Shown here piece by piece: positions 1-47,912 of a stretch of DNA of 47,912 bases. The notes beneath the pieces are model-generated. The model worked only from the letters and a program-made list of their open reading frames with translations. It made no database searches and was not told the DNA's origin. Origin of the DNA: a virus; IMG/VR virus record IMGVR_UViG_3300050026_000188; one strand, 5' to 3'. Positions within the stretch are counted from its first letter, which is position 1; each line of letters begins with the position of its first letter. The position numbers and the translations under genes were made by a program.

Positions 1-77
1 GAGATCGCCCCCGCCGTGTTGAGGATGCTTGTCCCATCCGGCTTCACGCCTCCGAGCACGGTCGAAGTCGCCGTGGG
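1..77. repeat. Terminal direct repeat: bases 1..77 are identical to 47836..47912
   Basis: Exact 77-nt identity by direct comparison of the first and last lines of the window; a large minus-strand ORF reads through the junction in frame. Confidence 0.9.
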
Positions 78-907
78 TAGAACATAGGCAGATGGCGTCC
101 CACTCACCTGCGAGTAGGGCAGACTTAGGCTGGGCAGTGACGTAATCGCATTGGTGATATACCCGGAGGGATTCGCGGCGCTGTATGGGGTGAATCCCAA
201 AGCCGTCGTCACCATCGAGCCGGTGATGCCGCTGATGTACCCACTCGGGTTGGTTGCGTTGTATGGAGTGAATCCGAGTGCATTCTGCTTCCCATTGAAT
301 GCGGCCCAGTCAATGTGCGATAGGTAGCCGTCCACCGATGAAGTAGCCTGAGCCATCGCGCAATCTACGCTCGATCCGCTCGTCGTGCAATCCACCGGGG
401 CCGTGCCCGTGACCGCACTCAGCCCTCCGCCAGTTGAAGCCCCCCGCGCAACCATCGCGTTAGGGCTGGCAGTGAGCGTAAGGCTTACGCTGGTTGCCGT
501 GAACGTTCCCGAAGTCACGAATTTGATATGAGTCAGGCCGGCGAGATTGACTTGATAAAGCCCGTTCGCGGTCGCTGTCACGGTTGCGGTTGGGGTTGCG
601 CCTGGCGTTACCGCAGTGATTGGAATCGAGTAGTAAGTCGCTCCGTTGTCGCTACTCCCCAACACGGCGAAGGTTGCAGTTGTCAGGGAAGTTCCGGTTA
701 CAGCGATTGTCCCCGACGCGAAAGAGCTTCCGACGGTTGAGGGCACTACCAGGCCGTTGAGTTGAAATGGGGTACTGGTTTGCCCCGTGGCGGTAAAGAT
801 CTTCGCAGGGAAAACCGAATTGCTGTAAGGGCTCGCCAACTGAGCGCGAGCGGCGGGAGCCCCTAAACCAAAGCACAACGCGAGTGCGAGTAAAATCTTA
901 GTTCTCA
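1..907 (-). CDS. N-terminal part of a giant secreted tail-fibre-like protein (continues at 47835..44232 across the junction; about 1500 aa in total)
   Basis: ATG at 907..905 preceded by GGAGGG; N-terminus MRTKILLALALCFGLGAPAARA-QL looks like a Sec signal peptide; Gly/Thr/Ser/Ala-rich; repeated ALGFTPY..NPSGYI and ..VLGGVKPDG.. fibre-like motifs; frame continues into ORF 44232..47894. Confidence 0.6.
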
Positions 908-961
908 TTATTTGAAGCCCTCCGTTATTATTTATACGTTGCGGACTGATATTATGCATCC

Positions 962-1639
962 ATGAAGTTTTACGTTTACGCCCACAAAACGATATCCCCG
1001 CGTAAGGCGGGCGAGGTCTTTTATATCGGCAAAGGGCAGCGACGGCGCGCTTGGCTCGCAACTGGGCGCAATCCTCACTGGCAACGGGTTGCATCCAAGT
1101 ATGGATTCTCCGTCATTATTCTCGCGGACGGACTAAGCGAAAAGGCGGCTTTTGACCTAGAGAAGTCGATCATTCTCATTTGCGGCCGGGCGGCTCTCTG
1201 TAACCTTACAGACGGCGGCGAAGGCATCTCGGGTGCTTCGGAAGAGATTTGCCGGAAGATCAGCGAGCGTCACAAGGGTAAACCCAAGAGTGCTCAGCAT
1301 AAACAGAAAATAGCGGCATCGCATAAGGGGATTCGGCCATCAGAAGAAACCCGAGTCAGACTCAGAGCACGCCGACCGTCCGAAGAAACTCGCGCAAAAC
1401 TCAGTGCTTCTCAAAAGGCTCGCAATATAACCGCTCCCTCAGATTTTGCCGAGCGTAGCGCTTCCATGCGAAAGGCCGTTACTTGCTCCAACGGCATGAT
1501 CTTTGATTCGGTTAGTGCTGCTGCCACATGGGCTCGGAAGAACGGCTTCCCGAAAGCGGCTACAAGCAATATCAGCAACGTCTGTAATGGCCATCGCCCA
1601 TCAGCTTGCGGTGGCCTGACCTGGGCATTCGTCAAATGA
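962..1639 (+). CDS. GIY-YIG homing endonuclease with NUMOD3-like repeats
   Basis: N-terminal FYVYAH...GEVFYIGKG...R motif (GIY-YIG); twice-repeated SEETR..L (NUMOD3-like); free-standing immediately upstream of the large terminase. Confidence 0.8.
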   Translation: MKFYVYAHKTISPRKAGEVFYIGKGQRRRAWLATGRNPHWQRVASKYGFSVIILADGLSEKAAFDLEKSIILICGRAALCNLTDGGEGISGASEEICRKISERHKGKPKSAQHKQKIAASHKGIRPSEETRVRLRARRPSEETRAKLSASQKARNITAPSDFAERSASMRKAVTCSNGMIFDSVSAAATWARKNGFPKAATSNISNVCNGHRPSACGGLTWAFVK

Positions 1640-3099
1640 TTTCCATTACTGAGGACGAAACCGAGGAAGCCGCTGCCGAAGAGATATTCGCCCGTCGCAA
1701 CGGGCAGAAGACGATGTACGGGTATATCAAATACACGATGCTTGGTTATAAAACATCGACATTTGCCGAACGAGTATGCGCGGCGATTGACAAATTTATA
1801 ACTGATGTGCAAGCGGGCAAGCGTCCGGTTTTGATTCTTCAAGCTCCCCCGCAGAGCGGAAAATCTGAAATAGCTTCTCGCAAACTACCGGCTTATTTAC
1901 TTGGCAGGTTCCCCGATTGGCGCATTGCGGCTTGCAGTTATGGTGATGAATTGGCTGGAGCAATGGCGCAAGATGTTCGCCGAAATATCAACTCGCTTGA
2001 GCACCAAAAGCTATTTCCAGCCCCGGAAGAAAAGAAGAAATACGACGTAAACCGAATGGGAGATTTTACTGCGCCAGGTGGCACTGGCAGTTATTTGGGG
2101 GTGGGTGTCGGGGGCGGTCTTACTGGCAAGAGCGCGACCATTGGAATCATCGATGATCCAATCAAAAACGAAAAGGAAGCGCTCAGCGTTACAACTAAAG
2201 AGGGGCTATGGTCTTGGTATCAAGCTACTTTTACAACGCGGCTTTCCCAAAATTCAGGTCAAGTCATAATGGCTACATCTTGGGCGGTCGATGATCTGGT
2301 TGGGCGCATCATCGATCACTTCGCCGGCGATCCCCGTCTTACTCATTTGCGATTCCCGGCGATCAACCTGCCCGATGAAGTCGGATATAACCCCAAATTA
2401 CCAGAAGGTGCTCTCGTTCCCGAGCTTCACAGTCTCGAAAAACTATATGAGACTAAAGCTCTTTTTTCCGATTATTGGTTTTCATGCTTGTATCAGCAGA
2501 GCCCGAAGGCTCTGGGCGGCAACGTCTTCAAGGATTTTTGTATTCAGTATTACAACCCGAACGATCTGCCGAAGAAATTTGACAAGGTAATAGCGTCTTG
2601 GGATTGCACTTTCAAAGACACGGACGGGACCGATTTCGTAGTCGGGCAGGTATGGGGCAAAAAGGGAGCCAACAGTTATCTACTTGATCAGATCCGCGCT
2701 CGCATGAGTTTCAGCGTTACATGCAAAGCCATCGTTACCCAGAAACTAAAATGGCCGCAGATTCGCGAGGTGCTGATTGAGGACAAGGCTAACGGACCGG
2801 CAGTTATTGACGTGCTCAAGGCTCAGGTGCCTGGCATCATCCCGATTGAGCCCGACGGCTCGAAGCTCGCCCGCGCCCATGCGGTTACATGCTACTGGGA
2901 AGCGCTCAACGTATGGCTTCCTAATGAAGCTCTTTGCCCGTGGATAAAGGCTTACGTCTCCGAGATGACTACCTTCCCGGCGGCCGCCCATGATGATCAA
3001 GTGGATAGTACGACTCAGGCGCTCCGCCGGCTCTATCCCTTATTCGGAAGGCTCAAAATAAATCGGAATGCCATAAACAAGGCACTTGGGATAAGGTAA
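1636..3099 (+). CDS. terL: Terminase large subunit
   Basis: Walker A-like PQSGKSE, Walker B-like IGIIDDP, C-terminal nuclease motifs (ASWDCTF, AAAHDDQVDS); the ATG at 1636 overlaps the endonuclease stop (ATGA); the ORF track starts at 1606 with an alternative codon. Confidence 0.85.
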   Translation: MISITEDETEEAAAEEIFARRNGQKTMYGYIKYTMLGYKTSTFAERVCAAIDKFITDVQAGKRPVLILQAPPQSGKSEIASRKLPAYLLGRFPDWRIAACSYGDELAGAMAQDVRRNINSLEHQKLFPAPEEKKKYDVNRMGDFTAPGGTGSYLGVGVGGGLTGKSATIGIIDDPIKNEKEALSVTTKEGLWSWYQATFTTRLSQNSGQVIMATSWAVDDLVGRIIDHFAGDPRLTHLRFPAINLPDEVGYNPKLPEGALVPELHSLEKLYETKALFSDYWFSCLYQQSPKALGGNVFKDFCIQYYNPNDLPKKFDKVIASWDCTFKDTDGTDFVVGQVWGKKGANSYLLDQIRARMSFSVTCKAIVTQKLKWPQIREVLIEDKANGPAVIDVLKAQVPGIIPIEPDGSKLARAHAVTCYWEALNVWLPNEALCPWIKAYVSEMTTFPAAAHDDQVDSTTQALRRLYPLFGRLKINRNAINKALGIR

Positions 3100-33904: not shown

Positions 33905-34609
33905 ATGGTCTACGTCGGAGGTAAATCTAAAGTCGCGAAAGATCTGGCTGCCATTATCTCGCTCTTCAGTCCCCGCGTTTATTGGGAGCCCTTCGTGGGA
34001 GCCGGGACCGTCATCCAATACGTCAAAGCTCCCGTAAAAATTGGAAGCGATTTAGACATTCATATCGCTTCGTTTTTGGAGTGCGTTCGAGACGGATGGC
34101 TTCCGCCGGCTGAGGTTTCCGAGAGTGACTATCAGTTTCTCAAGAGTTATGTACCTCTCACTCGCGAGTGCTACGCGACAAAGGCGGCCATCGGTTATGG
34201 ATGCTCTTTCGGAGGTAAATGGTTTGGCGGATTTGCGCGAAACACCCGGCATAGTTCCTATGCCGGGTATGTCTATAACTCATCCCGCAAACAAAGCCCT
34301 TTGTTGCAAGGTATTCAATTCAAAAATCAGAGTTACCTTGACGGTCTGCCCGAAGGTGTTGATCTCATCTATTGCGATCCCCCTTACGCAAATACCACCA
34401 GTTGCGGGAGCGGCCGACAGTTCGATTCAAAGCTATTTTGGGACTGGTGTAGAGCCGTAGCTCTTCGAGGTATCACCGTCCTGGTTACAGAGTTCACCGC
34501 GCCGGATTTCGCAATGGAGATTTGGCGCAAAGAGAAGCCGGCCGATTTGCGGCGCGGAGATAACAAAGGTATGACAGAGAAATTGTTTCTAGTTAGGGGA
34601 GCAGCATGA
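33905..34609 (+). CDS. DNA adenine methyltransferase, Dam family
   Basis: Motif I YWEPFVGAGTV and motif IV LIYCDPPY in alpha-class order. Confidence 0.85.
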   Translation: MVYVGGKSKVAKDLAAIISLFSPRVYWEPFVGAGTVIQYVKAPVKIGSDLDIHIASFLECVRDGWLPPAEVSESDYQFLKSYVPLTRECYATKAAIGYGCSFGGKWFGGFARNTRHSSYAGYVYNSSRKQSPLLQGIQFKNQSYLDGLPEGVDLIYCDPPYANTTSCGSGRQFDSKLFWDWCRAVALRGITVLVTEFTAPDFAMEIWRKEKPADLRRGDNKGMTEKLFLVRGAA

Positions 34610-34926
34610 GCAACAAGCGATTCAAACCAACCATCAGACGCGAGCTTATTTTGAGAGCAGCAATCGAGAGCGCCAGGCAGCCCGGCGGCTGGTCACTGAT
34701 TACGCGCCAGGTAATCGCCAACGCTGCCGGCTGCTCTGAGGGATTAGTATCCCGCTACCTGGGCGATATGAAGGATGCGCGGCGTGTCATTATGAAAGCC
34801 GCGATTCGGGACGAAATTACGGAAATAATTTACCAAAGTCTTGTCGCACACGACGGTTACGCCGTAAAGAAGTGGCTTCCCGAACCCCTCAAGCAAAAGG
34901 CCCTTCGCAGCGTAATGGATCTGTAA
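34606..34926 (+). CDS. Small helix-turn-helix DNA-binding protein
   Basis: ITRQVIANAAGCSEGLVSRYLGD resembles a TetR-type HTH. Confidence 0.4.
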   Translation: MSNKRFKPTIRRELILRAAIESARQPGGWSLITRQVIANAAGCSEGLVSRYLGDMKDARRVIMKAAIRDEITEIIYQSLVAHDGYAVKKWLPEPLKQKALRSVMDL

Positions 34927-34932
34927 CCGAAA

Positions 34933-35022
34933 ATGTTCTACATCTACATTCATTGCAGACCAGACGGCACCCCCTTCTACGTCGGTAAGGGGCATGGCGC
35001 TCGGGCTAGAAACTTGGAATAA
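34933..35022 (+). pseudogene. Remnant of a GIY-YIG homing endonuclease (29 codons)
   Basis: MFYIYIHCRPDGTPFYVGKGHGARARNLE-stop: a GIY-YIG N-terminal motif cut short; below the ORF-track size cutoff. Confidence 0.55.
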
Positions 35023-35037
35023 GGGGCTCAAGCAAGC

Positions 35038-37401
35038 GTGAATCAATTCATCGTTTACCGAAGGTCCGACAAGGCTCCCGTTGACTACCGCACGGGCAAG
35101 CCCGCGAACGCTCACGATTCCTCAAATTGGACAGACGTAGCAACAGCATCCAGTGTTGCTCAGGCATGGGGCGCTGAGTGGGGCATCGGTTTTGTTCTTA
35201 CGGAGCAATCGCAGATCGCTGTGATCGATGTGGACGGTTGCCGCAATCCGCAGACTGGGGAAATAAGCCTCATCGCTCAAACATTGATCACCATGCTTGC
35301 TGGTGCTTATGTTGAGATCAGCATCGGTGGGAAGGGCATCCACATCTGGTTTCGTTATAGCGGGGCGATGCCCCCGCACGCGAGCAGGGCGGCCGGAATT
35401 GGCGAGTTTTATCACAAGGATAGATACATCGCGATTGGCGCTCCTTATGCGGCTCCCAGCTTCACAAACGGAAGTCTGGGGACGGACCATACTGTATCTC
35501 TTCCATCTCTGATTGCTACGTTCTTTCCCCCTGACGCTTCGAGCGTCGGTGAGAGCGAATGGACTACCGAGCCCCGCGAAGATTGGAACGGGCCGCTAGA
35601 GGATAGCGAGTTGTTGCGCCGCGCCATGCAGAGCCGCTCGACGGCAAGCGCCTTCGGCGGTAAGGCGTCCTTTGCGGACTTGTGGCTCGCTAACGAGTCT
35701 GTACTCGCTGTGAGCTACCCTGACGCCAACGGGAGAGCCTACGACGCGAGCGCCGCCGATGCTGCCCTGGCTCAGCACTTGAGCTTTTGGACGGGTGGAG
35801 ATTGCGCTCGTATCGAGCGATTGATGAGGGGCTCAAAGCTAGTCAGGGAGAAGTGGGAACGTAACGCAGACGTGTACTCCGGTCCGGGTATGGGATATAT
35901 CCCCCGCACCATCCTGGGCGCTTGTGGTCGGCAGCTTGAGGTACTCTCTGATGCCGCCAGCGCCCCCGTACCGCCCCCGCCGGGCACGGTGAGCCATGCG
36001 CCCACCCCCAGGGGCGGCGATGGCTTCCTGGACTCTGAGAAGCAACAGGCTCACTTTGGGCAGTGCGTCTATGTGAGCGGCCAAAACAGAGCCTTAGTGC
36101 CTGACGGCTCGCTAATGAAGCCCGACGCCTTCCGCGTGCGATACGGCGGTTTCAATTTCAATCTCGATACTCAGAATATGAAGACAACCCGGGACGCCTG
36201 GGAAGCGTGGACGCAAAACCAGGTTTACAAATGCACTGAGGTAGACGGGATATGCTTCAAGCCCAATCTACCGGCGCGGAGCATCGTACACGCCAACGGT
36301 CAGACCTTTATCAACACCTTTATCCCCGTCGACATTCGGCGCGTTGTGGGCGACGCCAGTCCCTTCCTCAACCATCTCGCGAAGGTACTGCCCGATGAGC
36401 GCGACCGTACGATTTTGCTCTCGTATATGGCGGCGTGCGTCCAACATCAGGGAATCAAATTCCAATGGGCTCCCTTGCTGCAGGGCGTTGAGGGGAACGG
36501 CAAGACGCTCTTTGCGCGATGCGTAGAGCAGGCCGTTGGTACTCGATACACCTATTGGCCGAAGGCAGCGAAGATCTCCGCAACCTTCAATGCATGGATG
36601 GCTAACAAAGTCTTCTATGCGGTCGAAGATATTTATGTTCCCGACTCGAAGCGCGAGATCCTCGAAGACTTGAAGCCGATGATCACGGGGGACAAAATCG
36701 AGATCGAAGCGAAGGGCATCGATCAATTCATCTCGGATATTTGCGGTAACTTTATGTTCAATTCCAACCATCTTGACGCGATCCGGAAGACTGAGAATGA
36801 TCGCCGCTTTTGCGTGCTCTTTAGCGCTCAGCAACAGTCAAGCGACCTGAGACGGGACGGACTAACGGAGAGTTACTTTGTAGCCTTGTACAACTGGCTT
36901 AGAGAAGAGGGCTACGCGATAGTCAACGAGCTTCTATTTACCTACGCGATCCCCGCGGAGTTGAATCCCGCCGGCGACTGCCAGCGAGCGCCGGTCACCA
37001 CCAGCACCTCTAAGGCCATCAAAGACGGCCTGGGCAGCCTTGAGCAAGAGATCGCGGAAGCCGTCGCCCAGGGCTTGCCGGGCTTCTCTGGTGATTGGAT
37101 ATCTACAACCTGGCTTGAGCGCCTTCTAGAGCGGATGCGGCTAAACAAGATATCACACTCGAAGCGTAAACAGATCCTTGAGCAGATGGGTTATATCTAC
37201 CATCCCGCGCTCACTGACGGCCGCCCCAACAATCCCGTGCTGCCCGACAACACAAAGCCGCGGCTCTTCGTACTCGCCGGATCCCTGACTTCGCAGATCC
37301 CGACGGCCGCGGCAGCCACGAAGCATTATGAAGCCGCCAACGCAAATAAGAGCCCCGTAGGGCTCCCGTTCGCTGCTCATCAGTTTGGGCGCTCTAACTA
37401 G
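35038..37401 (+). CDS. DNA primase-helicase (PrimPol-like N-terminus + SF3 helicase)
   Basis: IAVIDVDG primase-type DxD motif; Walker A GVEGNGKTLF and Walker B FYAVEDI; GTG start with AAGGGG upstream. Confidence 0.75.
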   Translation: MNQFIVYRRSDKAPVDYRTGKPANAHDSSNWTDVATASSVAQAWGAEWGIGFVLTEQSQIAVIDVDGCRNPQTGEISLIAQTLITMLAGAYVEISIGGKGIHIWFRYSGAMPPHASRAAGIGEFYHKDRYIAIGAPYAAPSFTNGSLGTDHTVSLPSLIATFFPPDASSVGESEWTTEPREDWNGPLEDSELLRRAMQSRSTASAFGGKASFADLWLANESVLAVSYPDANGRAYDASAADAALAQHLSFWTGGDCARIERLMRGSKLVREKWERNADVYSGPGMGYIPRTILGACGRQLEVLSDAASAPVPPPPGTVSHAPTPRGGDGFLDSEKQQAHFGQCVYVSGQNRALVPDGSLMKPDAFRVRYGGFNFNLDTQNMKTTRDAWEAWTQNQVYKCTEVDGICFKPNLPARSIVHANGQTFINTFIPVDIRRVVGDASPFLNHLAKVLPDERDRTILLSYMAACVQHQGIKFQWAPLLQGVEGNGKTLFARCVEQAVGTRYTYWPKAAKISATFNAWMANKVFYAVEDIYVPDSKREILEDLKPMITGDKIEIEAKGIDQFISDICGNFMFNSNHLDAIRKTENDRRFCVLFSAQQQSSDLRRDGLTESYFVALYNWLREEGYAIVNELLFTYAIPAELNPAGDCQRAPVTTSTSKAIKDGLGSLEQEIAEAVAQGLPGFSGDWISTTWLERLLERMRLNKISHSKRKQILEQMGYIYHPALTDGRPNNPVLPDNTKPRLFVLAGSLTSQIPTAAAATKHYEAANANKSPVGLPFAAHQFGRSN

Positions 37402-37824: not shown

Positions 37825-38457
37825 TCATTTGCTCACCCGCTTTAGAAATAATGCCTTCTGACGTTCAATAGCCGCCGAGTACGCCGCCCAGTACGCCGAG
37901 TCCGCCGCCGAGTCCGCCGCCGAGCGCGCCGCCGAGCGCGCCGCCAAGCGCGCCGAGTACGCCGCCGAGTCCACCGCCGAGTCCACCGAGTCCACCGAGT
38001 CCACCGCCGAGTTCGCCGAGTCCGCCGCCCAGTACGCCGAGTCCGCCGCCGAGTCCGCCGCCGAGTACGCCGCCGAGTACGCCGCCGAGCGCGCCGCCGA
38101 GCGCGCCGCCGACTTTTTATCTTCTAACTGAGCAAGCGTAATTTTTCCGTCCATAAAATCGCTCGCGGCTTGCAGCGCTTCGCGAGGGCGCTTGTCGTCA
38201 GGAAACGCCTTCTCAAAATTACCCAGAACTTCCATTGCAAAATCAACAGAGAGTAAAACGATGGCTCGCTTACAGGGCTCCGTAGTCGCTCGCATTGCCC
38301 AGATCGCATGATCTAAGCCGTTGGATTTGAGGATGCGTTTTAGACTGATTTCTTTATCGTCAGTCCACTTGGAGCCGAGTGAAGCTGTCAGAGTTTGTAA
38401 TCCAGCAGAGCAGGCGTTTGCCTTGTGAAGTAGAGCGAGCGTGGTTTTGAGCATCAT
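37825..38457 (-). CDS. Protein with a C-terminal SAA(R/Y/D) tetrapeptide repeat array
   Basis: ATG ATG at 38457 with AGGAGG upstream; non-repetitive N-terminal domain of about 110 aa, then SAARSAARSAAYSAAYSAADSAADSAYW... repeats. Confidence 0.45.
   Translation of the reverse strand: MMLKTTLALLHKANACSAGLQTLTASLGSKWTDDKEISLKRILKSNGLDHAIWAMRATTEPCKRAIVLLSVDFAMEVLGNFEKAFPDDKRPREALQAASDFMDGKITLAQLEDKKSAARSAARSAAYSAAYSAADSAADSAYWAADSANSAVDSVDSVDSAVDSAAYSARLAARSAARSAADSAADSAYWAAYSAAIERQKALFLKRVSK
37871..38112. repeat. GC-rich 12/9-bp tandem repeat array (GCCGCCGAG + 3 nt) inside a coding region
   Basis: About 20 consecutive units readable directly in the sequence. Confidence 0.85.
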
Positions 38458-38483
38458 TGTGAGCGCCTCCTGAGCGCTGATAC

Positions 38484-38512
38484 AGAGTATCAATTTACTA
38501 GTAAGCTGTCAA
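38484..38512 (-). promoter_or_regulatory. Promoter-operator cassette copy 1
   Basis: Minus strand: TTGACA - 17 nt containing TTACTAGTAA - TACTCT, then leader with AGGAGG. Confidence 0.4.
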
Positions 38513-40435: not shown

Positions 40436-41335
40436 ATGACACCCAATAACTACCCCGTAATTACACCGCTAGCCATTCGGGGTAATTCTAAGCGCCCGTT
40501 TGCATTGTGGATGCCCGGCGCGGTAATGTGGGAAGCCAGGGATATGCTCAGTGATCGTCAAAAACGTTTCGTCTTCCATCAGGCTCGCATTACTGATGGT
40601 GCAAAGGCTTACGTATTGGCAGGTTACAGCGAGCAGGGAGCGGCTCAAGGCGCTTCGCGTCTGTTACAGAACGTTGAGATACAGGAAGCTATAGAGGTTG
40701 AGCGGGCGGACCTGGCCCGTGTCGCGAGCCTGAGCCCCGAATGGGTTTTGAATCGATGGATGTTGATCGCCAGCGCGGACCCGAGAGATCTGATCCATAC
40801 CCGCATCGGCTGCTGTCGGCATTGCTGGGGCATTGATAACAAACGGGAATGGATGGAACACGAATACGCTACCGCGCTCAACGAAGCTCTGACTTGCATG
40901 TTGCTGCCGCCGGCCTTCGAGGGTGGCCTAGGGTACTCGCCGACTCGCGAGCCTAACCCTGACTGCCCTAAGTGCAAGGGCGAAGGCTTGCCGCGGACCT
41001 GGCTCGCCGACTCCCGCAAGCTGAGCCGTTCGGCCGCGGCTCTCTTCGCTGGCGTAAAGCAGACGAAGGATGGGATTGAGATCAAGATGCACGATCAGCC
41101 CGAAGCGCTCAAGTCGCTCGCCGATTACCTGGGGATGCAGAACAAGAGCAGCGCCGATGTAAAGCTGGCTGCGGCTCTGGTGGTGGGCGGGAGCGCTAAG
41201 GATCTCTCAGACGATGAGCTTGCCGGCATCATTGAGCGGGGGCGGTTGCGGAGGGCTCGAGCTGCGACTTTGGGGGTATCTGCGGGGGTATTATCGCCGG
41301 CGGCGTTGCCAAGTAAGACAATCGAGGGCACTTAG
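40436..41335 (+). CDS. terS: Terminase small subunit-like protein (SPP1 G1P / Terminase_2-like) with Cys-rich insert
   Basis: LSDRQKRFVFHQARITDGAKAYVLAGYSEQGAAQGASRLLQNVEIQEAI...RVASLSPEWVLNRWMLIASADPRDL matches the small-terminase N-terminal pattern; CCRHC / CPKC cysteines. Confidence 0.65.
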   Translation: MTPNNYPVITPLAIRGNSKRPFALWMPGAVMWEARDMLSDRQKRFVFHQARITDGAKAYVLAGYSEQGAAQGASRLLQNVEIQEAIEVERADLARVASLSPEWVLNRWMLIASADPRDLIHTRIGCCRHCWGIDNKREWMEHEYATALNEALTCMLLPPAFEGGLGYSPTREPNPDCPKCKGEGLPRTWLADSRKLSRSAAALFAGVKQTKDGIEIKMHDQPEALKSLADYLGMQNKSSADVKLAAALVVGGSAKDLSDDELAGIIERGRLRRARAATLGVSAGVLSPAALPSKTIEGT

Positions 41336-44231: not shown

Positions 44232-47200
44232 CTAGTTACCAATGCAAATATAGCGAATTGCGTCACTACCTAAACCGCCATCATCTGAAAATGTCACCGA
44301 CGATCCACTTGTGTAAGTAACTCCCAGTGCGTTAAGATTGATGGTGCTGACTGTTGCGCTCGTCATACAGGCATAAGAGGATGAACTGGTAAATATGGCT
44401 GACCCGCTAAATGTCACCGTTGCAGCACCACCAGAAAGCGTCGTCAAGCCCATCACTGTGTGCGCAGATGTCAGTTGCGTCCCGGCGGCGTTGTAGAGCG
44501 TTCCACCAGGGCACCCCGTCCCATCCGCAAGGCAGTGGGCTTCTGGTACTCCGCTACCATTCAAGTCTGTGCTGCCCGCTCCTGCTGAAGATACACCTGT
44601 GCTACTTACTTGAAACTGGCTACTTGAACCAACGGATAGCAACGCCGCTGGCGAAGTCGTCCCGATGCCGACGTTGCCTTGGAAAATACCTCCACCTGTT
44701 CCAACCCACAGACTCTTCCAACGTTGGCCCGTAACCCCAAGGTTAATCGTATTATCGAAGGCGGGGGCCGGATTAAGACCAGTTGCGGTTAATTGCATTA
44801 CATCCTCATAAGCTGGGGAACCCGGCAGCTCAAAAGCGAGCGTGGTATACGTGCTCTGCGCACCAATCCTTAAAACATTATAGGTGCTGTCCAAATATAT
44901 AAAGGCTGGCGGCGTCTGCCCATTTATTACGATTGGGTTGGCAAAGACTGTAGGATTTCCGGCGATAGTCAGGCCGCCCGTGCGCAATGCGCCAGTGCCA
45001 AGATCAAGAGCCTGTACAGGGCTCGTCGTCCCGATACCGACGTTGCCGTTATTATCTATCCTGACCTTTTCCGTTGGTCCACTAAGACCATCATTTTGCG
45101 TGAGAAAACGAATCTGCGATAGTGTATTTTGCGAACCAGATACGATGTCAAGTATTCGTGCATAGATGCCTGCCGTTGGGAAATTTTGAGCTTGGTAAAA
45201 ATTGAAAACACCTTGGTCACTAATACCATATGTTCTTAAATTAGTATCAGTAGACGGATTTCCCAAAGACAACTGCCCACTCGGCCCCGTCGTCCCGATG
45301 CCGAGTCTATGATTCGTCGCATCCCAGAAGAAATTGGAATTGTCTTGTGCGATGGTTGAGCCATTTGAGAACAACACGGAGCCAGAGGTTAGCGAAGGCA
45401 AAGTGAATGTCCCGTAAGTATTTGTGTCCAGCGCAAACGTCCCTGCTGCCGTCATCTTTACGAATGGTGTGCCCGTAGTCCATGTCGGATAATTCAACGC
45501 GCCCCATGTGCCTACGGAAGGCAGAGCCGTGCATCCCCCGCTGGACATCAATGCGCCAGAGCAAGAGCCGGAACCAAACAGCGCCGTTATATCGCTGTAT
45601 AGCGGAGTGCGCCACGCCGTGTTCCCACTATTCGCCACGCCAATCGTGTTTGCTCCGGGGTAGGTCATGGTACTGCCCGGAGTCTGCCATCCCTGAGCTG
45701 TTGCCCCAGAGTTCATCCCCCAGACTTGGTTTGCCGTGCCGTTGGTGCTGAGGTTTGTGGCTGTGGATGAGTTGCCAGTAAAAGCGGCTCCATGAAGTGT
45801 CGCTAATCCGGCTGCACTACCGAAGTATTCATCAGTTACCGCAGCATTGCCAATTACTGCTGTGTTGGAACCTGCTCCAACTGCCGTCGATCCTACTACA
45901 ATTTCGTTTGTGTTACCATTCGCACTTGCCTGTGTGTTCTGCCCCAGGAAAGTCCCGTAGCTACCCGTTATATTATGATACCCAGTAGGAAGTAAAGTTC
46001 CTGCTAAATAGCCCGCTGCTGTATTACCATTGCCCGTAGTAGTGAACTGAAGCGCCCCACTTCCAATTCCGGTACTGTAACTCCCAGAAGAGTTTGTAGC
46101 TAGGGTATTATTTCCGATTCCTATGTTATTGCCCCCACTTGTAAGATTGTAGAGGGCAGAGTCCCCTAAGCCTATATTGTTACTACCTGTCTCTATGCCA
46201 CCGTAACCTATTGCCTCAGCACCTATCGCGATATTGAATGATCCAGAGGCACCAAGTAGGTTTGATGTACCTATGGCAATGTTCACTGTGCCGGTAGAAC
46301 TTGCTAAAGTGCTACTATTACCGATGGCAATCGAACTAGCTCCTCCATACGTCAAGGGCAAACCGCCCCCTAAATTCAGATTAGAAGATGGGATGGTATA
46401 AATTGCGACCCCACTATCCTGAACCTGGTCCCCTGTTCCGGTAAAGGTTACGGCATCATTGGCGGTTGCGCTGCCGGGTCCGGTGACTGGGTTGGTAAGC
46501 GCGAGTTGGAAGTCCGTAGCCGCATGAGTCGCCGCCGTCCCTACCGTTGTAGAACAGCCGCTCGCTCCGTTGCTCAGATCGCCACATGCTGCTTGACTGA
46601 ATGTTGCGCTGCCGTTCGACTTGACCGCGCCTGTCACGGCCCCCGCGTTGTCCGCCTTCGTGCCTTGTGCCGCCGTGGCATAAGCCGTGGACGCGGTGTA
46701 AGCCGCCGACCCAACCGCACCGCTGCCAAGCAGCACCGAGCCACTTCCATAGGTACTTAGCTCGCCCAGCACGCCGCTGTTGTTGTACTCGATGTGGCCA
46801 GTCGTGCCACCCGCAATCGTCGTGGTGCCTACGGTGATCGTTCCAGCAGATGCGGATATGGTACAGGTTCCACCCAGGGCGCAGTTCTGGCCGTTGACCG
46901 TAGTCACCGAGTTTGCTAAGGCTGCGTTCGGTACCGCCTCATACGTCACCGTGTTCGTACCGGTCACTACCGGTACGGTGTTGGTTGAAGGGCTGGAACC
47001 GTAGCTAACTCCATTCACCACTGCAACCGTGGGAGTTGCGGTCGTCACTGCTGTCAACTGCCCCGCTGCGTTGTAGGTGATAACTGGTATCGCTGTCGCG
47101 CTTCCCGTCGGCCCTGCCGCCGTAATGACCCCACCCGAGGGGACGTGGCTTGCCGATGTGCCGATAGGGAGGTAGGAATAGCCCACAGTCCCAGACGAGA

Positions 47201-47912
47201 TGTTGCTGGCGTTGGAGGCGTAAGTTTCAGCATTCGATTGAGCCGTGGAAGCTGCGCCAGAAGCATCATAGGCCGTTGATGCGGTAAACGCCGCAGTACC
47301 AAATACGCCCCCAGCCGCAGTCGTCAGATAGGAAAGCGTCGTTACGGTTGGCGCAACCGGAGTGTAGGTCAACGCGGTAGTCACCTGGCCAGAGGTCATG
47401 CCGGTTAGGTTCGCCATACTGAAGGTCGGTGCCGCCGTGAAAGTCGGAGCCGCGCTGCTGCCGGTGAAGTTGCCAAAAACGGTGTTCGCCGCCTGATTCT
47501 TGAGTGTTGCCGTGACCGTTCCGCTGGTTGTTACCGCTGTACTCGGAGTCGAACTGTCCACCGTGCCATCGCCCGTGAAGGTCACGCTGCTTACGCTTCC
47601 CGTAGATGTTCCGCACGTTGGGCAAGAGATCGCTCCCGTTGCCGCGACTACAATTGGGAGTGTTCCGCTCAGTCCAGCCGAACCAACCGAGCCGATGGGA
47701 ATGCCAGTCGGCAGATAACTCACTCCAATGGTTCCAGTGTTGATGTGGCTGGCATTCTGCGCGTAAGTCTCGGCATTGCTCTGAGCCGTTGCCGCCGCAC
47801 CGGAAGCATCCGCTCCCACACTTGCCGCTGTTGCCGAGATCGCCCCCGCCGTGTTGAGGATGCTTGTCCCATCCGGCTTCACGCCTCCGAGCACGGTCGA
47901 AGTCGCCGTGGG
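44232..47912 (-). CDS. C-terminal part of the giant secreted tail-fibre-like protein (N-terminal part at 907..1)
   Basis: ORF is open to the window edge and matches 1..77; A..S..A..S fibre-type repeats (TAQSNAETYA.NAS twice); several N.GIGTTSP motifs. Confidence 0.6.
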   Translation of the reverse strand, partial: PTATSTVLGGVKPDGTSILNTAGAISATAASVGADASGAAATAQSNAETYAQNASHINTGTIGVSYLPTGIPIGSVGSAGLSGTLPIVVAATGAISCPTCGTSTGSVSSVTFTGDGTVDSSTPSTAVTTSGTVTATLKNQAANTVFGNFTGSSAAPTFTAAPTFSMANLTGMTSGQVTTALTYTPVAPTVTTLSYLTTAAGGVFGTAAFTASTAYDASGAASTAQSNAETYASNASNISSGTVGYSYLPIGTSASHVPSGGVITAAGPTGSATAIPVITYNAAGQLTAVTTATPTVAVVNGVSYGSSPSTNTVPVVTGTNTVTYEAVPNAALANSVTTVNGQNCALGGTCTISASAGTITVGTTTIAGGTTGHIEYNNSGVLGELSTYGSGSVLLGSGAVGSAAYTASTAYATAAQGTKADNAGAVTGAVKSNGSATFSQAACGDLSNGASGCSTTVGTAATHAATDFQLALTNPVTGPGSATANDAVTFTGTGDQVQDSGVAIYTIPSSNLNLGGGLPLTYGGASSIAIGNSSTLASSTGTVNIAIGTSNLLGASGSFNIAIGAEAIGYGGIETGSNNIGLGDSALYNLTSGGNNIGIGNNTLATNSSGSYSTGIGSGALQFTTTGNGNTAAGYLAGTLLPTGYHNITGSYGTFLGQNTQASANGNTNEIVVGSTAVGAGSNTAVIGNAAVTDEYFGSAAGLATLHGAAFTGNSSTATNLSTNGTANQVWGMNSGATAQGWQTPGSTMTYPGANTIGVANSGNTAWRTPLYSDITALFGSGSCSGALMSSGGCTALPSVGTWGALNYPTWTTGTPFVKMTAAGTFALDTNTYGTFTLPSLTSGSVLFSNGSTIAQDNSNFFWDATNHRLGIGTTGPSGQLSLGNPSTDTNLRTYGISDQGVFNFYQAQNFPTAGIYARILDIVSGSQNTLSQIRFLTQNDGLSGPTEKVRIDNNGNVGIGTTSPVQALDLGTGALRTGGLTIAGNPTVFANPIVINGQTPPAFIYLDSTYNVLRIGAQSTYTTLAFELPGSPAYEDVMQLTATGLNPAPAFDNTINLGVTGQRWKSLWVGTGGGIFQGNVGIGTTSPAALLSVGSSSQFQVSSTGVSSAGAGSTDLNGSGVPEAHCLADGTGCPGGTLYNAAGTQLTSAHTVMGLTTLSGGAATVTFSGSAIFTSSSSYACMTSATVSTINLNALGVTYTSGSSVTFSDDGGLGSDAIRYICIGN

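Follow-up and report, generated by a model that had tools for sequence, protein, structure and literature searches.

An intact GIY-YIG homing-type endonuclease gene at the terminase start codon and a 29-codon remnant of another lineage at the primase of one uncultured phage genome

Genes for homing endonucleases are concentrated near those of the terminase and the replisome and coincide with boundaries of genetic exchange, as described for ICP1-like phages (PMC10055350). The viral record IMGVR_UViG_3300050026_000188, a stretch of 47,912 nts analysed at its full length and called the window hereafter, was proposed in a preliminary description to carry two such genes, one intact beside the large terminase gene (TerL) and one surviving only as a short stub beside the primase-helicase gene, and hence to record both an active and a decayed invasion. 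The question is therefore whether the stub is a true endonuclease remnant, how it relates to the intact gene and what became of the host genes at the two sites. The numbers preceded by L and P below denote the related loci and proteins that were compared.

The first 77 nts of the window (1-77) are identical to its last 77 nts (47836-47912), indicating a phage genome that was assembled as a circle of about 47.8 kb. The stub recurs in L001, an IMG/VR record from another sample with 99.96% identity to the window, while the intact gene recurs at 99.9-100% identity in L028 and L029, two independent IMG/VR contigs from other samples, and neither element can thus be an assembly accident. A sequencing or assembly error at the stop codon of the stub was also ruled out, because L001 is identical there. 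Megablast of both regions against GenBank phages returned no match, hence no annotated close relative exists.

A family HMM of the N-terminal domain, ~95 aligned residues long, was derived from 119 database homologues that included no window sequences, and compared with all 1360 six-frame stop-to-stop segments of the window. Two segments matched, the intact ORF with 117 bits and the stub with 36.1 bits (E 4e-10, HMM positions 5-33), while the third-best segment scored 8.9 bits (E 0.13); near the stub, the search found no other GIY-YIG-like segment in any frame. In a direct alignment by BLASTP, 13 of 28 residues are identical between the two elements (E 4e-6). Their neighbours are indeed conserved phage genes, TerL (phrog_38) and the primase-helicase (phrog_1829). 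An Rfam scan of the whole window gave no hit and thus no indication of a group I intron next to the two elements. The reading favoured here, with a probability of about 0.8, is that free-standing GIY-YIG genes from two lineages of one family invaded this genome at least twice and independently, by the mechanism outlined below for each site.

The primase junction comprises the following features:

34606..34926, plus strand: conserved HTH-like gene, 106 aa (phrog_8723, E 4e-23), which directly precedes the primase in relatives (~35 loci)
34933..35022, plus strand: the stub, an N-terminal remnant of a second GIY-YIG endonuclease, 29 codons, with the GIY, YIG and Arg motifs kept, in the same frame as the primase
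35021..35037, plus strand: spacer with a Shine-Dalgarno-like AAGGGG, which overlaps the stub TAA and lies 11 nts before the primase GTG
35038..35570, plus strand: N-terminal primase-polymerase domain of the primase, a foreign allele with 30-40% identity to L010 and L024
35571..37401, plus strand: remainder of the primase-helicase, the native allele, closely related to L010 and L024

The ORF of the stub reads MFYIYIHCRPDGTPFYVGKGHGARARNLE and ends at a TAA. The catalytic Glu and Asn as well as the DNA-binding part are absent from its 29 codons, which makes it a remnant that cannot be a nuclease. The resemblance between FYIYIH... in the stub and QFIVYR... in the primase raised the possibility of a diverged duplicate of the primase N-terminus, which was ruled out since the family HMM covers all 29 residues with 36 bits.

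The primase-helicase of 787 aa (phrog_1829, E 6e-118; DUF5906; NrS1-1 HBD) has its GTG start at 35038, 15 nts after the stub and in the same frame. In ~35 related loci, the primase follows the HTH gene directly, within a few nts and with no endonuclease in between, and begins with M(R/H)xLPxALxxxxAYR-QFIVY. The closest relatives, L010 and L024, read ...SLLG-stop, (I/R), MH(A/S)ALFGLTAYRQFIVYR at this junction, where the window reads ...VMDL-stop, PK, MFYIY...RNLE-stop, GAQAS, VNQFIVYR. Hence the ATG of the stub occupies the place of the primase ATG of the relatives, 3-6 nts after the HTH stop, and the window primase is devoid of the conserved first 12-13 codons of its family. Rather than lying simply upstream of the primase-helicase, as in the preliminary description, the stub stands in place of the primase start and of these 12-13 codons. 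The first usable primase start is GTG 35038, with no other start codon between the stub TAA (35020-35022) and this GTG, and translation would presumably begin there. A heptamer, GGGCTCA, found just after the stub TAA is common to the window and L010/L024, a homology that is statistically insecure; the spacer 35021..35037 possibly represents degenerate primase codons 7-13, with GGGCTCA corresponding to about codons 7-9.

Among ~45 related loci, taken from collections of viruses, metagenomes and genomes, none was found to have an intact GIY-YIG gene at the HTH-primase junction, which may reflect sampling; as no relative carries one, decay in place is something that we infer. The junction itself is an insertion hotspot, given that it accommodates two methyltransferase genes in L026 and another gene, of 251 aa, in L002.

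Further variation was seen on the other side of the HTH gene. A Dam-like (D12 class) methyltransferase gene at 33905-34609 of the window constitutes an indel relative to L010, in which a 160-aa gene abuts the HTH gene, and other relatives hold 1-3.6 kb of different cargo either at this site or between the HTH gene and the primase. Such varied cargo marks the surroundings of the HTH gene as an accessory-gene hotspot. Within the primase gene of another relative (L061:4001-6535), the match is split between residues 299 and 314 by ~235 extra nts, which may be another insertion.

The peculiarity of this primase is not limited to its start. Sliding identity to L010 and L024 amounts to 30-40% over the first ~180 residues and to 80-100% over the remainder, whereas L010 and L024 are 75-94% identical to each other in both parts. 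In the N-terminal region, L010 has 50-74% identity even to the distant L017 and L003, more than to the window. At the DNA level (blastn), the similarity to L010/L024 breaks off close to where the HTH gene ends and is found again from 35560-35581 onwards, so that the stub forms the left edge of a ~630-nt block with the divergent primase N-terminal domain. These comparisons thus identify the block made of stub and N-terminal domain as foreign to the DNA on either side. The domain itself is most similar to P0121 (65%), P0122 (52%) and the Acidobacteriaceae MAG loci L069 and L070 (51% and 45%). P0121 still carries a 13-residue leader before QFIIYRRSDK, which identifies the absence of the leader in the window as a loss. 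A donor of the allele was sought by pattern scans with P0121 in viral and genome collections, which found nothing, and by profile scans, which yielded no more than three loci, the two in Acidobacteriaceae MAGs and a weak one of viral origin, all lacking a GIY-YIG gene. L069 and L070 are the closest genomic relatives of the domain and hint at which hosts the donor lineage or the phage group infects; this uncultured group may infect Acidobacteriaceae.

According to the favoured reading, a second endonuclease gene would once have occupied, or arrived at, the interval that separates the HTH gene from the primase, and an exchange at this site would have brought the divergent primase 5′ region. Deletion or illegitimate recombination would then have removed everything after endonuclease codon ~27-29 together with the primase start and its first 12-13 codons, leaving the primase to begin at GTG 35038 behind the AAGGGG that overlaps the stub stop. 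Most likely, the ~530 nts of foreign primase DNA arrived with the endonuclease, either as a co-conversion tract or in the same recombination event. The order given to these steps is our inference. Such a remnant would explain both the presence of a 29-codon ORF before the primase and the GTG start of a primase without the conserved N-terminus of its family.

It is also possible, if unlikely, that the stub has acquired a function as an upstream ORF, in which case it would be translated by ribosomes coming from the HTH gene, which would terminate at TAA 35020-35022 and start anew at GTG 35038, and selection would keep this coupling. The location of its ATG at the place of the primase ATG of relatives, shortly after the HTH stop, is what such a role would call for, as are the AAGGGG over its stop, 11 nts before the GTG, the lack of start codons between TAA and GTG and an ORF that is unbroken for exactly the conserved N-terminal stretch. 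However, the arrangement is known from one genotype only, L001 being 99.96% identical, and a recent deletion would give the same picture. This possibility leaves the remnant origin of the stub intact. It can be extended into a rather doubtful scheme, in which the remnant serves as a coupling ORF for a chimeric primase whose domain swap and loss of the start and 12-13-residue N-terminus were a single endonuclease-driven exchange. If so, the decay product of a selfish element would have become an expression signal of an essential replication gene.

A different origin of the stub, as a fragment at the edge of the tract that imported the foreign primase domain, with an illegitimate junction inside the donor endonuclease gene, is improbable. 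It would agree with the location of the stub exactly at the left edge of the divergent block and with the role of nuclease genes as exchange boundaries in other phages (PMC10055350). However, with the order endonuclease-primase in the donor, the part of the endonuclease gene brought by a tract that enters from the right would be its 3′ end and not its 5′ end, the retention of codons 1-29 alone needs a separate internal deletion, and no donor was found in either the pattern or the profile scans. As the surviving part is the 5′ end of the gene, this origin is less parsimonious than the invasion and later decay favoured here.

The invasion at TerL, the other half of the favoured reading, concerns these features:

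902..931, plus strand: promoter-like element TTCTCA-18-TATTAT from a consensus scan, a hint only
938..1635, plus strand: inserted endonuclease cassette of ~696-698 nts, made of a 22-24-nt leader and the ORF, absent from L030, L031 and L032
962..1639, plus strand: intact free-standing gene of a predicted GIY-YIG homing endonuclease, 225 aa; residues 1-93 catalytic, ~94-169 helical NUMOD3-like repeats, ~172-225 C-terminal DNA-binding (predicted)
1636..3099, plus strand: TerL gene (Pfam Terminase_6N/6C; phrog_38, E 4e-97), the presumed homing target or anchor
Immediately 5′ of TerL in L008/L052: endonuclease homologue, 50% identity to the window protein
Immediately 5′ of TerL in L071: endonuclease homologue P0002, 52% identity to the window protein
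Immediately 5′ of TerL in L072/L073: endonuclease homologue P0005, 45% identity to the window protein

The ORF 962..1639 begins with an ATG and ends with a TGA at 1637-1639, which overlaps the TerL ATG at 1636 to form ATGA. Its protein matches the PHROG family 314, annotated as homing endonuclease (E 3e-20), and, among annotated phage proteins, the Seg-like or intron-associated endonucleases of Rhizobium, Sinorhizobium, Proteus, Synechococcus and crAss-like phages. Of its 770 database homologues, most carry NUMOD3 (PF07460), which also holds for the best 120, and some carry LEM-3-like GIY-YIG (PF22945) or NUMOD1/I-HmuI-type domains. The catalytic motifs occur in the right order, FYVY (Y4, Y6), FYIGKG (Y21, G23), R29, E67 and N81, in columns that are invariant or nearly so in an alignment of 39 sequences. 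All of the family-invariant residues are present (Y6, H8, Y21, G23, K24, G25, R29, W40, E67 and the GG-G motif), and so is N81 in its nearly invariant column. The alignment to the GIY-YIG HMM spans residues 4-97. A confident AlphaFold model (mean pLDDT 90) has the GIY-YIG fold of a three-stranded sheet with helices, followed by short helices at residues 94-169.

Pfam support for the protein is weak. NUMOD3 scores 19.9 bits at residues 139-152, 0.5 bit under the gathering score of 20.4, PF01541 is not reported, and PF22945, which several of the homologues do carry, falls below threshold (E 0.022, 15 bits for a cut-off of 27). The results for the two GIY-YIG models reflect the sensitivity of these models and do not contradict the fold. 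On its sequence and its modelled structure, the protein is a GIY-YIG homing-type endonuclease with predicted nuclease activity. The GC content of the cassette is no outlier (0.54 vs 0.56 for the genome, 28th percentile), hence composition gives no sign of a foreign origin.

Evidence for an insertion comes from L030, L031 and L032, which are endonuclease-free, encode a TerL 82-84% identical to that of the window and have the upstream non-coding block in common with it. DNA homology to the window ends at 937 in L030 and at 939 in L031, i.e., at the base before the TerL start codon and at the first two bases of the start codon, respectively, and resumes at ATGATTTCC, the window TerL start at 1636. 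The endonuclease-less junction of the L030 type reads ...TATTATTTCTAC / ATGATTTCTGTTACCGACG..., with the slash at the junction. In ~15 further, more distant relatives, TerS abuts TerL, also without an endonuclease. The gene is therefore a presence/absence polymorphism with precise boundaries in collinear DNA.

The same site is used elsewhere. The closest homologues of the endonuclease lie immediately 5′ of TerL in diverged genomes, as listed above, and have TerS as the upstream gene wherever this is known; in L008 and L072, the endonuclease stop overlaps the TerL ATG as it does in the window. Upstream of the window gene lies non-coding DNA, TerS being located at 40436..41335. Because the upstream neighbour varies between TerS and non-coding DNA, the constant partner of these endonucleases is the TerL 5′ end, and they form a TerL-start-specific clade in an uncultured phage group. 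Homologues at 37-42% identity adjoin other genes, namely tail or baseplate genes in L075 and a large unannotated gene in L074. Patchy distribution, precise boundaries and site constancy together are what characterizes a free-standing homing endonuclease gene in genome comparisons. In TerL, no co-conversion tract is readable, the N-terminal ~45 aa being hypervariable in all pairs of relatives.

The intact gene would thus represent a ~697-nt cassette inserted exactly at the TerL start codon, which would be transcribed together with TerL, with TerL translated by coupling at the ATGA. If the protein acts like I-TevI and the T4 Seg enzymes, its NUMOD3 repeats and C-terminal domain would attach it to the TerL 5′ junction of a co-infecting relative that lacks the endonuclease, and cleavage close to this site would fall to the GIY-YIG domain at its N-terminus. 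The broken genome would then be repaired by recombination with the endonuclease-bearing one and would thereby acquire the gene along with part of the flanking DNA. An insertion would also explain why TerL is without upstream signals of its own. The cassette leader contains no obvious Shine-Dalgarno sequence. The promoter-like element 902..931 belongs to a block that is nearly invariant across the window, L030 and L031, and in the endonuclease-free relatives, it ends 6-7 nts before the TerL start. If the element is a promoter, the cassette landed between promoter and start codon; this is no more than a hint, because the consensus scan showed no enrichment over shuffled sequences.

It is very improbable that the protein has never been mobile, or has lost its mobility, and is instead a domesticated packaging nuclease working with the terminase, like the HNH proteins of HK97-like phages. 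The gene adjoins TerL and is translationally coupled to it, in four lineages, and cooperation between HNH proteins and terminase of the HK97 type is discussed in PMC10055350. However, the closest relatives (TerL 82-84%) and ~15 others have an otherwise identical packaging module without it, and this absence makes domestication unlikely. Moreover, family members at 37-42% identity adjoin tail or polymerase-like genes, and the domain architecture is that of I-TevI/Seg-type endonucleases.

Several other features of the packaging region were observed. The ~860 nts 5′ of the endonuclease and TerL genes (~78-940, especially 445-939) contain no convincing ORF and show 74-78% DNA identity to L030/L031; a 70-codon ORF at 528..740 is less conserved as a protein (46-56%) than as DNA, which suggests that it is non-coding. 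This stretch is possibly a packaging or regulatory region. TerS (40436..41335) is ~7 kb from TerL in the window, unlike in most relatives. The TerL Walker A motif (residue ~77) is PPQSGKS in the window and PPQHGKS in the five relatives aligned there. The TerL homologues of L035-L038 (e.g., L035:1884-4286) are 800 aa long and carry a ~310-aa insert with LAGLIDADG_3 directly after Walker A (PPQHGK/...). This insert is an intein, and the TerL family is thus targeted by a second kind of selfish element.

With both sites described, the relationship between the two elements can be addressed. The stub can be aligned to full-length family members from its own Met and their initiator Met onward, with up to 64% identity (P0120, 16/25). 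In a tblastn search of GenBank phages (2.3 Gb), with E-values as low as 3e-4, the stub matched annotated GIY-YIG/Seg-like endonucleases at their extreme N-termini, the same annotated endonucleases that the intact gene matches, and three PHROG families match the stub at their N-termini (E 2e-4 to 4e-3). When extended to 51 aa as a query for a large protein database, the stub had three 5-mers in common with no entry. A chance ORF that merely resembles the GIY-YIG motif, as the length of 29 codons and the absence of a Pfam GIY-YIG match might suggest, is effectively refuted by the gap between 36.1 and 8.9 bits in the six-frame search with an HMM free of window sequences, and is further opposed by the tblastn and PHROG matches to N-termini and by an alignment that begins at the initiator Met of the family. 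The intact gene ranks only 83rd among 122 family members by similarity to the stub, so the stub is no copy of the resident gene and two separate invasions are recorded. The lineage of the stub is represented by a single phage genotype.

The outline given by the preliminary description thus stands, with an intact gene overlapping the TerL start, a 29-codon GIY-YIG motif at the primase that resembles endonuclease N-termini far above chance, and relatives that are free of an endonuclease at either junction. The pairing of an active with a decayed invasion is borne out insofar as the endonuclease gene at TerL, predicted to be active, has its conserved residues and fold intact and the stub is a remnant that probably decayed in place; neither of the two is a copy of the other. 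Beyond that description, the present comparison adds the different lineages of the two elements, the replacement of the primase start by the remnant and the swap of the adjoining primase N-terminal domain.

The mechanism expected of Seg-type endonucleases is that they cleave the endonuclease-less allele, upon which markers are co-converted. Among the closest known systems to the intact protein is I-TevI, the endonuclease of the phage T4 td intron (PDB 1ln0 for the catalytic domain, 1i3j/1t2t for the DNA-binding domain). The T4 Seg proteins (SegA-G) and the Seg-like homing endonucleases of Rhizobium/Sinorhizobium phages (RHph_X2_25, NV1.1.1, AP-16-3) are free-standing GIY-YIG enzymes encoded between conserved phage genes, as in the window. 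The Seg-like endonucleases are 36% identical to the intact ORF over 80% of the query (E 4e-15) and 57-60% identical to the stub over 25-28 aa. However, the Seg and Seg-like enzymes are only distantly related, belong to another phage group and have another target, while the window gene sits at the TerL start codon. The GIY-YIG restriction endonuclease PD-T4-3 (PDB 9u75) differs in that it serves bacteria in anti-phage defence and has a different C-terminal domain, whereas the window gene belongs to a phage packaging module and has a patchy, insertion-like distribution.

The life cycle of homing endonucleases set out by Goddard and Burt (1999) reportedly runs from invasion and fixation to degeneration and loss. 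The window genome shows both an intact and a degenerate copy, as in that cycle, and as with the exchange-boundary endonucleases of ICP1-like phages, its remnant lies where an essential replication gene has an abrupt mosaic breakpoint. It differs from both cases in that the remnant took the start and 12-13 codons of the host gene and is still an open 29-codon ORF in the frame of this gene. It is already well known that terminase and replication genes can have homing endonuclease genes as neighbours, so that the main use of the finding lies in annotation, and the two elements are ordinary for phages, though unusually cleanly documented here. Nevertheless, a single junction that joins an endonuclease remnant, the loss of host-gene coding sequence and a domain-sized allele swap in an essential gene provides a clean natural example, which, together with the clade at the TerL start, could be of use in work on the contribution of selfish nucleases to phage mosaicism.

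Elsewhere in the genome, a 222-aa ORF on the minus strand (37825-38493) contains a long, imperfectly repeated alanine/serine tract (AARSAAYSAADSAADSAYWAADSA...), and a 1220-aa ORF, also on the minus strand (44232..47894), runs up to the circular junction of the window. A unit of ~152 nts matching window positions 47761-47912 occurs three times in L028 (1265-1416, 2015-2166 and 4187-4338) at 97-100% identity, which suggests repeats or assembly variation near the genome junction.
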